From a virus (taxonomy: Duplodnaviria > Heunggongvirae > Uroviricota > Caudoviricetes), in IMG/VR virus record IMGVR_UViG_2740892322_000008: a stretch of DNA of 11,363 nucleotides; one strand, 5' to 3'. Under the pieces are notes generated by a model that saw nothing but the letters and a program-made list of their open reading frames with translations, was not told where the DNA came from and ran no database searches. The stretch's first letter is position 1. Each line of letters begins with the position of its first letter. The position numbers were made by a program, and so were the translations under genes. This document shows, piece after piece, positions 9,003 through 11,363 of the stretch.

Positions 9003-9165
9003 AGCTAAAGTATTAGCTTAAAAATAAAGTATACCTAGCGAATATAATCTAGGACTAGTTGTAACGCCCGAAATGATTGATTGCGTGAGCAACAAAATTT
9101 TTCTTCCATTGTTGTGAAATCATTTAGCCATAAAGTTTATGCAGAGATTTTATTTTATTTTTGAG

Positions 9166-9193
9166 TTGATTTTTTTGTAACGAGCTGTATATT
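9166..9193 (+). promoter_or_regulatory. Candidate sigma-70 promoter upstream of the adhesin gene
   Basis: TTGATT (9166-9171), 16-nt spacer, TATATT (9188-9193), inside a strongly AT-rich 250-bp region. AT-rich DNA yields many chance matches, so this is weak. Confidence 0.25.
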
Positions 9194-9251
9194 TCGCGCC
9201 TCTTGTCATACCAGTTATTTTTTTCATTATATTCATAACGTTGATTGAACT

Positions 9252-11363
9252 ATGACCACTGTGAATAAAAAGTTAAAAAAAACTGCATCTGGCGCGATTA
9301 CATGGTCGGTAATTGTTACCCAGATATTATCTCCAGTTTCTCTTTCTTTGATCCCAGCAAACAGTTTTGCATCATCTGGTAATAAAGATGTTACGCAAAT
9401 TTATGCCAGCGATGAGCATGCAAATAAAGTGGCCTCATTTGCAGCAAGTGCAGGTCAGAGCCTGGCGAATAATAATGCAAGTAGTTTTGCTGTAAATACT
9501 TTATCAACTCAGGCGACAAAAGAGGTCGTCGACTGGTTGCAACAATATGGCAATGCGCGCATCAAGCTTAATGTCGATGATTCTTTTTCCTTGAAGGATT
9601 CATCATTCGACTTTTTATATCCATGGCTGGATACTCAGGATTATGTGTTATTCAGTCAGACATCACTACATCGTACTGATGACCGAAATCAGACCAATAT
9701 TGGTTTGGGGATTCGTCATTTCACTCCTGATAACGCAATGTTGGGTGCGAATGTTTTCTATGATTACGATTTAAGTCGTAGTCACTCTCGTGCAGGTTTT
9801 GGGGTTGAGTACTGGAGGGATTATTTCAGGCTTGGTGTAAATACCTATTTTGGTCTATCTGACTGGAAGAACAGTCGTGATATTGATGATTATCTGGAAA
9901 GACCTGCAAATGGCTGGGATTTTTCTGCTGAAGGATGGCTACCTGCTTATCCGCAATTAGGGGCATCTATTCAGTTTGAAAAATATTATGGTAAAAATGT
10001 CGGGTTATTTGGAAGCGATAACCTGCAGGAAAACCCTTACGCAGTTACTGGGGGAATTTCTTATACACCAGTTCCTCTGATTAAGTTTTCTGCACAGCAT
10101 AAGCAAGGACAGAGCAACACTCACGATACAACCTTTGGTGTTGAGTTTAATTATCGCCCGGGCGTTTCCTTGGCTGAACAGCTTAGCAGCGATAATGTTG
10201 CAGTTATGCGAGAAGTCCAGAACCGGCGTTATGATTTTGTTGAACGAAATAACAACATTGTTCTGGAGTACAAGAAGAAGCATGCACTGAAAATCAGTTT
10301 GCCAGAGTCTGTTCAGGGGGAGGGGGAATCAATCATCCCTGTAACACTGACAATCAACAATGCTAGTGGTGGTATCAAGTCTGTACAGTGGAATGATAGT
10401 GCATTCACTGCGGCTGGCGGCAAGATCAGTGGAAATGGCACATCATGGCAGATCACTTTACCGGCTTATAAAAGCGAAGGTGTAAATTCGTGGAATGTTG
10501 GAGCCACAGTACAGGATAACAGAGGCAACGTTTCCAACTATGCCGTGATGAATATTAGCGTTACTGATAGTGATGTATCGACAGCTGATTCGTCTTTTAC
10601 ACTGGATGGAGATTCGTCGCCGACGATCTCTGCTGATAGCCAATCCACTTATCCGATAGTATTAAGCCTGAAAGATAGTAACGGTAAGGCATTAACCGGA
10701 CTGGCTGATGACATTGAAATGTCAGTGGAATTTACAGCAGATAGCAATAGTGCTCGACAGCGTGAAACGGTAACTGCTCCGTCATTAGGCGCGGTAGAGG
10801 AAATCTCTGCTGGGGTATATCGCTCTGTTCTGGCTGCTGGTTCGCAGGCTGGTACGGTACGTGTAACTGCAAAAGTTCAGGGAAAAACCTTTACTCTGAA
10901 TATTAAGCAAACAGCAACAACAGAACCTGATTCTGAGGTCAGTGCTGTTTTAACCGCTGCACCAGCAGAACAGGTAGTTGGTTACAATATCAATCTACAA
11001 CTGGCAGTGAAGGATTCACAAGGAAATGCAATCACTGGTGATAACACTCTGAGCTTTTATGCTCTTAACCAGGCAGAAGGAGTCGAGTTTGGGACTGTAA
11101 CGGAAAAAGACGGTGTCTATAGCGCGACAGTAACTTCAAAACGAGCTGGTAAGATTACTATCGGTGTTAAATCTGATAGTCATGATTTCTCAGGTGTTAA
11201 GAAAGAAATCACCTTTATTGAGGACCGGCAGCAGGTTACATTCTCTCAGTTTGAAGCCAGCCAAAATAATGCATTGGCTGATGGAAAACAGAGTAAGCGT
11301 AAACTGACCGCCGTATGTAGCCATCAGACGAGAATTGGTAACTTAGACGCCCATCTGATATAG
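9252..11363 (+). CDS. Inverse autotransporter adhesin (intimin/invasin family, FdeC/YeeJ-like); 703 codons, probably C-terminally truncated
   Basis: N-terminal signal-like segment, then the inverse-autotransporter beta-barrel domain (FSLKDSSFDFLYPWLDTQDYVLFSQTSLHRTDDRNQTNIGLGIRHFTP ... RYDFVERNNNIVLEYKKK), matching YeeJ/FdeC motifs from memory, then at least three Big_1-type Ig-like repeats. The last 16 codons depart from the repeat pattern just after a new repeat begins, and the stop coincides with the window end. Confidence 0.85.
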   Translation: MTTVNKKLKKTASGAITWSVIVTQILSPVSLSLIPANSFASSGNKDVTQIYASDEHANKVASFAASAGQSLANNNASSFAVNTLSTQATKEVVDWLQQYGNARIKLNVDDSFSLKDSSFDFLYPWLDTQDYVLFSQTSLHRTDDRNQTNIGLGIRHFTPDNAMLGANVFYDYDLSRSHSRAGFGVEYWRDYFRLGVNTYFGLSDWKNSRDIDDYLERPANGWDFSAEGWLPAYPQLGASIQFEKYYGKNVGLFGSDNLQENPYAVTGGISYTPVPLIKFSAQHKQGQSNTHDTTFGVEFNYRPGVSLAEQLSSDNVAVMREVQNRRYDFVERNNNIVLEYKKKHALKISLPESVQGEGESIIPVTLTINNASGGIKSVQWNDSAFTAAGGKISGNGTSWQITLPAYKSEGVNSWNVGATVQDNRGNVSNYAVMNISVTDSDVSTADSSFTLDGDSSPTISADSQSTYPIVLSLKDSNGKALTGLADDIEMSVEFTADSNSARQRETVTAPSLGAVEEISAGVYRSVLAAGSQAGTVRVTAKVQGKTFTLNIKQTATTEPDSEVSAVLTAAPAEQVVGYNINLQLAVKDSQGNAITGDNTLSFYALNQAEGVEFGTVTEKDGVYSATVTSKRAGKITIGVKSDSHDFSGVKKEITFIEDRQQVTFSQFEASQNNALADGKQSKRKLTAVCSHQTRIGNLDAHLI

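Follow-up and report, generated by a model that had tools for sequence, protein, structure and literature searches.

A probable cargo cassette with an FdeC-type inverse-autotransporter gene, between P and the nin region of lambda-like Escherichia coli prophages

Inverse autotransporters (type Ve) are defined by an N-terminal Sec signal and a PF11924 barrel that is followed by a C-terminal passenger of the immunoglobulin (Ig) superfamily (PMC4943183, PMC6714894). In a survey of 126 genomes (Goh et al. 2019), intimin, FdeC, YeeJ and IatA-D were covered, and EC958, the reference strain of E. coli sequence type (ST) 131, was scored for fdeC, iatA and iatB only (PMC6714894). The YeeJ/IatC/IatD class is marked by LysM before the barrel and by a C-type-lectin cap (PMC6714894), and IatB, IatC, IatD and YeeJ are surface-displayed and promote biofilm when over-expressed (PMC6714894; YeeJ also PMC5595812). 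LeuO controls iatB (PMC6714894, PMC5595812), H-NS controls FdeC according to the passage of PMC10436575 that cites Easton 2014, and the translocation and assembly module (TAM) assists assembly of FdeC and intimin (PMC4943183). The gene described here encodes a protein of the same secretion family as IatA-IatD, YeeJ and SinH, which are catalogued in PMC6714894, and lies directly behind replication gene P of a lambda-like prophage in IMG/VR virus record IMGVR_UViG_2740892322_000008. The whole stretch of DNA analyzed, 11,363 nt, is called the window below, and the gene is called the adhesin gene.

The morons and other cargo of lambdoid phages include bor/iss and lom of lambda, which are adhesion or serum-resistance morons, and emrE-ybcK-ybcL-ybcM of DLP12, which occupies the slot from P/ren to ybcN; the definition of a moron is reportedly that of Juhala and Hendrix. 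The adhesin gene is new as a gene for an uncharacterised FdeC-type protein, and lambdoid cargo in that slot was already known. In the literature searched, no description was found of an inverse autotransporter as lambdoid cargo, nor any name for this gene.

An open reading frame (ORF) listing, Pfam matches and the genes annotated in near-identical complete genomes show the window to be the left arm of a lambda-like prophage, and its features are collected in Table 1. We consider it very likely that the adhesin gene is a self-contained cargo cassette (moron) of lambda-like prophages; it would then belong neither to the host chromosome nor to the margin of a prophage in decay. To map its distribution, a junction query made of 403 nt of P, the spacer and 449 nt of the adhesin gene was searched in 5,426 complete E. 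coli genomes, with at least 80% covered as threshold. The P-spacer-adhesin junction was present in 558 of these (~10%), and the barrel alone in 560, at least 80% covered in 558; in E. coli the gene is essentially never found away from P. Carriers included EC958 and an ST1193 isolate. In IMG/VR, 31 viral contigs encoded a relative, 29 at 98-100% and two of Citrobacter type at 66%. Three contigs of the 98-100% set were checked (L018, L029, L032); in all three the adhesin gene came right after P, and two of them continued into ybcN-ninE-rusA. Three matches in the plasmid collection were to 238-542-kb ‘non-mobilizable’ records, and these are most likely chromosome pieces, not phage-plasmids.

Nin genes, Q, lysis, terminase and head genes followed the adhesin gene in all five complete-genome relatives examined, with tail genes also in L001, L002 and EC958. 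The order in these three was P, the adhesin gene (1183, 1302 or 1421 amino acids, aa), a convergent alpha/beta-hydrolase gene, a 33-aa ORF (ylcH-like) and ybcN, and beyond it ninE, ybcO, rusA, ylcG, Q, holin, lysozyme, Rz, iss, terminase, portal, capsid and tail. Window positions 1-11293 were 99.93% identical to L001 and 99.95% identical to L002, with icd directly upstream of int, and the prophage of the source isolate sits at icd, as in EC958. In EC958 the icd prophage (L048/L049, 1,256,866-1,304,682) runs to sitABCD and then to an icd' fragment (attR), ~48 kb from int. A complete lambdoid prophage was found in L001, L002 and EC958 (icd at attL; icd' at attR in EC958), and the source isolate is represented by the left arm. 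The rightward look, which the preliminary description of this DNA had named in advance as the view that could overturn it, placed the adhesin gene of the relatives inside an intact phage late region, with attR beyond it in EC958. Further cargo in the EC958 icd prophage comprises iss, a TonB-family gene and sitABCD, the last just inside attR.

The cassette has sharp edges. On the left, megablast matches to about 2,900 adhesin-free genomes stopped at query position 393, which is window position 8992, and comparison with L004, L005 and L007 agreed, similarity with adhesin-free prophages ending at 8992/8993. Both types share ...CTGAAAGGAGC, which is followed by GATGAAATAG in the adhesin type vs. 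AATTGTATGACGGGC in the ren type. On the right, the boundary falls just past the hairpin GGGGAGGGC-TTA-GCCCTCCC plus CTTTTTA. This terminator, a 9-bp GC-rich hairpin with a T run, stands 12 nt after the stop in L001 and is kept in L007 and L008; it is missing from the window, the gene being cut there. L004 is a sister prophage at icd with the same integrase type and an O-P region 98% identical, and it holds ren-emrE-ylcJ-ybcK between the same two boundaries, in a module that ends in a different GC-rich hairpin. Similarity to L004 restarts at the T tract CTTTTTACAGG, right after the adhesin hairpin.

The same cassette was found in L007, a prophage next to ybhC with kil, cIII, ral, sieB, cII and a 299-aa O (lambda-like), and in L008, a DLP12-like prophage at argU/intD, so that lambdoid backbones at three attachment sites (icd, ybhC, argU) carry it. 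L007 and L008 are without the hydrolase gene, and there the cassette ends just past the terminator. Sharp-edged extra DNA between phage genes, deviant base composition and a terminator of its own, three features of a moron, were found. The guanine-cytosine (GC) content of the adhesin gene was 0.43 and that at third codon positions (GC3) 0.35, against 0.54 and 0.60 for P and 0.51 and 0.63 for ybcN, which bears out the earlier remark that the gene is visibly AT-rich compared with the phage genes; phage int is as AT-rich as the adhesin gene (GC 0.43, GC3 0.38).

We propose that the cassette consists of the last three codons of P, an AT-rich leader of ~240-250 bp, the adhesin gene and the GC-rich terminator hairpin. 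Its slot, filled by ren-emrE-ylcJ-ybcK in sister prophages, belongs to the rightward early operon and is bordered by P and the nin region. The cassette has very likely entered several lambdoid backbones through recombination in flanks that they share, namely P on its left side and, on its right side, the T tract or the nin genes. By analogy with the family, the protein would be exported through Sec, its N-terminal 12-strand barrel would be inserted into the outer membrane with assistance from the beta-barrel assembly machinery (BAM) and TAM, and the C-terminal Ig chain would thread the barrel to the surface by hairpin-type export, for a role in adhesion or biofilm formation such as FdeC, YeeJ and IatB-D have.

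Two observations concern the neighboring modules. Between L004 12190-12240 and L001 24016-24050, the ybcK-ending and the adhesin-ending modules share the T tract CTTTTTACAGG, which overlaps the hydrolase stop codon; cargo module exchange seems to occur exactly at the terminator hairpins. The hydrolase gene (L001 24041-25084, minus strand) encodes a 347-aa alpha/beta protein (BD-FAE/Abhydrolase_3) with a GDSAG motif and a lipoprotein-like N-terminus ...SVGSC, and has a GC3 of 0.39. It is present in L004, which has emrE-ybcK instead of the adhesin gene, and absent from L007 and L008; by this pattern it is a separate cargo module, and its product is probably an exported esterase.

The adhesin begins with a basic KKLKK, a hydrophobic stretch and then ...SFA/SS, as inspected by eye in the translation. 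The PF11924 match spans the full profile. With the near-identical full-length L001 copy as query, the barrel matched Yersinia invasin 4E1T (E 7e-74) and intimin 4E1S (E 5e-63) in the PDB. The D00-like domain matched intimin D00-D0 6TQD (E 7e-10), Pfam matches to Invasin_D3 (E 3.3e-14) and Big_1 (E 5.2e-6) followed, and later Ig domains matched invasin 1CWV; in the 1183-aa form, Pfam gave five Big_1 and five Invasin_D3 stretches. No domain could be recognised in the final ~130 residues. The two type Ve features looked for, an intimin/invasin-like N-terminal barrel and an Ig-superfamily passenger after it, were both found. In architecture, the protein is thus classed from its domain matches as an FdeC-type inverse autotransporter as defined by Heinz et al. 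(PMC4943183). It had been called YeeJ/FdeC-like before, which stands for the architecture and not for orthology to either, identity to FdeC being 34%; alignments indicate an uncharacterised adhesin that is not an orthologue of YeeJ or FdeC.

Repeat number varied from 1 to 4 between strains, giving intact proteins of 1183, 1302, 1421 and 1540 aa (EC958, 1421 aa). Tandem Repeats Finder (TRF) on L002 (repeat 21762-22467) returned a period of 357, 2 copies and 97% matches, and the second of these copies aligned with window positions 10561-11293 as well. That the window shows one copy may reflect collapse in a short-read assembly, as such assemblies may under-count repeats. Between icd-type and ybhC-type alleles, the ratio of nonsynonymous to synonymous substitution rates (dN/dS) was 0.08 for signal peptide plus barrel and 0.11-0.19 for the passenger, next to 0.075 for P and 0.11 for ybcN. 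With dN/dS at 0.08-0.19, the adhesin gene is therefore maintained by purifying selection.

At its right-hand end, the window passes from the adhesin gene into an insertion sequence (IS) of the IS66 family; both this identity of 11293-11363 and the stop codon at 11361-11363 had been missed in the preliminary description. The adhesin frame crosses into the IS, takes up 23 IS-derived codons and stops at the final bases of the window, for an ORF product of 703 aa, where the uninterrupted L001 continues ...CAGAGAAATATGG. In L002 (24422-26953) ISEc23 is complete, 2,532 bp long and annotated with tnpA, tnpB and an ISEc23-family transposase. Its ends are imperfect inverted repeats (GTAAGCGTAAAC... and GTAAGCGTCAAC...), the left and right copies (IRL and IRR) agree at 19 of the first 24 positions and start GTAAGCG, and an 8-bp target duplication, GGGTTTTG, flanks the element, all in keeping with the IS66 family. 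The source contig FBVS01000067.1 (draft assembly GCA_001517685.1) ends 1 nt beyond the window. No nin, Q, lysis or structural genes were found within the window, because the short-read contig stops inside an IS repeat; the lack of late genes is a contig-edge artefact and uninformative on the prophage. Their absence, recorded earlier, is correct for the window and does not hold as a property of the prophage.

The alignments indicate that the adhesin gene is cut at about codon 680 by an IS66 element. Adhesin gene and IS have 1 nt in common at the join, and the junction was therefore taken as real and not as an assembly artefact. In one piece, the adhesin-IS junction was absent from the best-ranked complete genomes of the search, and it is a private event of the source isolate. 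As read from the sequence, the cut allele still encodes the probable signal peptide, the barrel and some three Ig-like domains, loses the terminator and at least the distal two fifths of the passenger, and is most likely a null or weakened adhesin. In L002, an ST131 strain, the hydrolase gene has ISEc23 in its 3' end, ~2 kb from the position of the adhesin-IS join in the window, and in two other complete genomes (H2 and H3) the match is split in the same way. A leftward adjacent deletion that started from such a hydrolase-sited ISEc23 copy could have produced the window junction.

Upstream of the adhesin gene, the arrangement given in the preliminary description was found as stated (P stop at 9002, an AT-rich region of ~250 bp, here 249 bp, then the adhesin ORF from ATG 9252), and the GC of this spacer, 0.30, is the minimum of the window. 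No ORF of at least 40 aa, no Rfam match and no intrinsic terminator was found in it. The proximal ~100 bp of the leader is kept upstream of the E. albertii homologue, outside a lambdoid context, and partly in Citrobacter; both promoter candidates fall inside the E. albertii-conserved block, in which the one at 9203-9230 reads TTGTCG...GATTAT. In lysogens, expression would probably come from a promoter in this leader, likely silenced in the H-NS manner, as for FdeC and as suggested for IatB. On induction, read-through from the rightward early promoter (PR) would add expression, because no terminator separates P from the adhesin gene. The phage must read through the adhesin terminator before reaching Q.

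Other readings of the locus were weighed against the cassette. The preliminary description had allowed for a cryptic prophage remnant that has lost everything beyond P and is flanked by host or island DNA with the adhesin gene, and the window lacking nin, Q, lysis and structural genes and the sharp GC fall after P are what such a remnant would give. Yet 558 junctions against 558-560 barrel copies place the gene essentially only after P, the nin-Q-lysis-morphogenesis region was intact downstream in every complete relative inspected, attR of EC958 lies ~48 kb away, three chromosomal attachment sites mean that the cassette moves with the phage and is not a host locus, and the window stops where the contig stops; we give a remnant almost no credence. 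The other possibility raised there, moron-type cargo, was upheld as to the cargo and not as to an insertion in place of the nin region, since the gene sits between P and an intact nin region and replaces ren or ren-emrE-ylcJ-ybcK. We regard it as unlikely that the gene is no autonomous moron, but promoterless and made only from the PR early transcript after induction, with a role in lytic or induced sub-populations. It is co-oriented with cro-O-P with no terminator between P and the ORF, and the promoter-like matches were not above shuffles, as that reading would have it; against it, ~100 bp of leader with both candidates is kept upstream of an E. albertii homologue that has no lambdoid genes nearby, the cassette has its own terminator, the chromosomal paralogues have H-NS- or LeuO-controlled promoters of their own (PMC6714894), and a selected outer-membrane adhesin of 1,200-1,500 aa is hard to explain if made only before lysis. 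Several points do weigh against an autonomous, phage-borne cassette. Promoter candidates in the leader numbered 3 against 1.5 +/- 1.4 expected from shuffles, which is not an enrichment, so that a promoter of its own is no more than a candidate; the sequence of the source isolate ends at 11363, and the late genes are known from relatives; side tail-fibre genes of EC958 are annotated as partial; a megablast of the cassette against the GenBank phage collection was blank, no sequenced free phage there carrying the gene; and a literature search for the adhesin, including four RefSeq accessions, returned no report of expression, surface display or adhesion. A tblastn of the barrel against the GenBank phage collection yielded nothing beyond one contig of a Salmonella genome and one fragment of 2 kb, 34-43% identical.

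For the source isolate alone, IS-mediated deletion or IS-IS recombination may have removed the distal adhesin gene together with some or all of the downstream prophage, which we hold to be a minor but real chance. The junction is private and was not whole in the best-ranked complete genomes, the right side of the IS is outside the window and the contig, and ST131 relatives (H1-H3, L002) carry ISEc23 within the hydrolase gene, in its 3' end and ~1.9-2.6 kb downstream, from which a leftward adjacent deletion would give this junction. A plain new insertion accounts for the junction equally well, however; a minimal adjacent deletion costs the distal adhesin gene, the terminator and a few hydrolase codons while the late genes stay, and nothing points to a larger loss. 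It is very unlikely that the adhesin-IS junction is a short-read assembly artefact and that the gene is intact in the isolate. The draft contig does end in a multicopy IS, and the near-identical 357-bp repeats within the gene are liable to collapse in short-read data, but 1 nt in common at the join leaves no repeat to mislead the assembler, ~71 nt into a repeat and then a stop is the usual mark of a real junction from unique to repeated sequence, and the identical 703-aa product is recorded for the contig in 2 samples.

Table 1. Positions, strands and supporting matches of the features of the 11,363-nt window
Feature	Positions	Strand	Remarks
int	1-1143	-	
xis	1133-1369	-	
exo, bet, gam (Red genes)	3013-4777	-	
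kil	4853-5059	-	
S24 repressor gene	5655-6344	-	
cro-like gene	6449-6679	+	
YdaT-domain gene	6749-7288	+	
O-like gene	7285-8304	+	
Lambda-type replication gene P, 233 aa	8301-9002	+	Pfam PF06992 Phage_lambda_P, E 3.4e-61
Left mosaic junction, ...GGAGC/GATGAAATAG	8993-9002	+	Cassette gives the last three codons of P (A-M-K) and the stop
AT-rich adhesin leader (spacer), 249 bp, GC 0.30	9003-9251	+	
Sigma-70-like promoter candidate, TTGATT, 16-nt spacer, TATATT	9166-9193	+	9/12 matches; predicted only
Sigma-70-like promoter candidate, TTGTCA, 16-nt spacer, CATTAT	9203-9230	+	Predicted only
Authentic part of the adhesin gene, codons 1 to ~680	9252-11292	+	99.9% identical to L001 20453-22494
Probable Sec signal peptide, residues 1-40, ...PANSFA/SS	9252-9371	+	Read by eye from the translation
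Inverse-autotransporter beta-barrel, residues 57-334	9420-10253	+	PF11924 IAT_beta, E 1.5e-101
First Ig-like passenger domains: D00-like 342-442, Invasin_D3 444-547, Big_1 580-655	10275-11216	+	
357-bp (119-aa) unit, tandemly repeated in other strains	10561-10917	+	Single copy in the window
Left terminal 71 nt of ISEc23 (IS66 family), inverted repeat GTAAGCGTAAACTGACC...	11293-11363	+	100% identical to L002 24422-24492

The rest of the window is the prophage left arm. The physical linkage of the adhesin gene to Red genes, pointed out earlier, was confirmed with exo, bet and gam. The P copies of L001 and L002, 99.9% identical, carry the RefSeq name ‘replication protein P’. In the immunity region (6449-7288), a YdaS-type cro-like gene is followed by the YdaT-domain gene in the position of lambda cII. 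In L007, the relative at ybhC, a true cII is present and the O gene is of another kind, yet P is 95% identical, which places a mosaic joint near the O/P border. The start codon of the repressor gene is uncertain: the ORF listing (5655-6410) gives 251 aa from an upstream ATG, and RefSeq gives 229 aa (690 nt) in identical relatives. The leftward early promoter (PL) region (5144-5654, minus strand, from kil to the repressor gene) covers ~0.5 kb with a GC skew of +0.33. Within 5144-5654 no ORF of at least 40 aa was found, no N-like antiterminator gene is annotated there in relatives, and Rfam was blank. The PL leader (5150-5330, minus strand) was folded in search of an HK022 put-like RNA, and with z = +0.38 it was no better than shuffles. 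Across the whole window, Rfam returned a single match, at chance level.

Homologues outside lambdoid prophages were more distant. Citrobacter homologues (1186 aa in C. portucalensis) had 66-67% identity in the barrel and 46-48% in the C-terminal region, and the E. albertii homologue (L012) had 80% identity in the barrel; a search of the 8 kb around these homologues, in Citrobacter as in E. albertii, turned up no P, O or nin gene of lambda type. In C. portucalensis (L011 4050-11537), the adhesin gene is flanked by iol genes on one side and, ~1.6 kb away on the other, by a P4-like primase gene (Zn-ribbon/Toprim/D5), and in E. albertii it is downstream of an operon of ABC-transporter and aldehyde-dehydrogenase genes. 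Sixteen E. coli records also hold a variant at 80-90%. From these contexts, the wider adhesin family appears to be cargo of several kinds of element.

The gene is carried by ~10% of complete E. coli genomes under purifying selection, and no name or functional study for it was found. The element is common and mechanistically ordinary, and the adhesin is widespread in ST131. Should the protein indeed function in adhesion, the gene would clearly exemplify how phages transfer a type Ve adhesin, and major multidrug-resistant clones might have in it a colonisation factor or a surface antigen. We put forward, tentatively and as a possibility that we doubt more than we favor, that it represents one more family of inverse autotransporters in E. 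coli, for which lambda-like phages are the sole means of spread, an adhesin or biofilm factor of lysogenic conversion that aids colonisation of the gut or urinary tract by pandemic lineages (ST131, ST1193), with 119-aa repeats that tune the reach of the tip past capsule and O-antigen, and with related copies that P4-like elements carry in Citrobacter. A practical point for genome scanning is that where a prophage seems to stop at a cargo gene, the cause may be no more than a contig broken within an insertion sequence.

Among named inverse autotransporters, the adhesin scored under the curated cut-off of every NCBIfam model, and a protein homologue search returned only near-identical E. coli proteins with generic names, among them variants in repeat length. 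For intimin, the model intimin_all gave 348 bits vs. a cut-off of 1400, and no LysM or C-type-lectin tip was found in the Pfam/PDB sequence search. For the YeeJ/IatC/IatD class, LysM and lectin domains were undetected in Pfam, and the IatC N-terminal model gave 402 bits vs. 2400; yeeJ itself had a weak 249-nt DNA match to the adhesin gene. Scores for SinH/IatB (320 bits vs. 999) and YchO (YchP)/IatA (270 vs. 508) were likewise under the NCBIfam cut-offs. AJB35136 (PMC10436575) proved to be a glycosyltransferase. EC958 carries the adhesin gene, yet the prevalence table of PMC6714894 has no column for it.

The likeness is greatest to FdeC (EaeH), with which the protein has in common a long signal peptide (a probable one here), the PF11924 barrel, a Big_1/Invasin_D3 chain, and the lack of LysM and of a recognisable lectin tip. 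FdeC is the nearest E. coli paralogue in DNA, at 66-67% over 535 nt of the barrel, and the protein alignment is collinear over 1,162 residues, but at 34% aa identity. This identity, a DNA match confined to the barrel and the different locus exclude an FdeC orthologue: fdeC is a fixed chromosomal gene beside ykgR/ecp, whereas the adhesin gene occurs only behind lambdoid P, and FdeC has ~1416 aa where the prophage adhesin has 1183-1540 aa with a variable 119-aa tandem repeat. Genomes with the adhesin gene hold extra, weaker barrel matches (in H88-H90, each record has 3 places), as would be expected if a separate paralogue, for instance fdeC, were also present. With intimin (Eae) and Yersinia invasin, homology covers the barrel, the D00-like domain and later Ig domains; intimin is linked to LEE, the enterocyte-effacement locus, and Tir, and the prophage adhesin to neither. 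By analogy with the over-expressed IatB, IatC, IatD and YeeJ, biofilm promotion on over-expression is the phenotype class most likely to apply. As cargo, the gene resembles classical lambdoid morons in being an extra gene between conserved phage genes, with odd composition and its own terminator; the emrE-type cargo of sister prophages occupies the same slot, and the same prophage bears iss, the bor homologue. It differs in size, being cargo for a type Ve protein of >1,100 aa, much larger than bor, lom or emrE.

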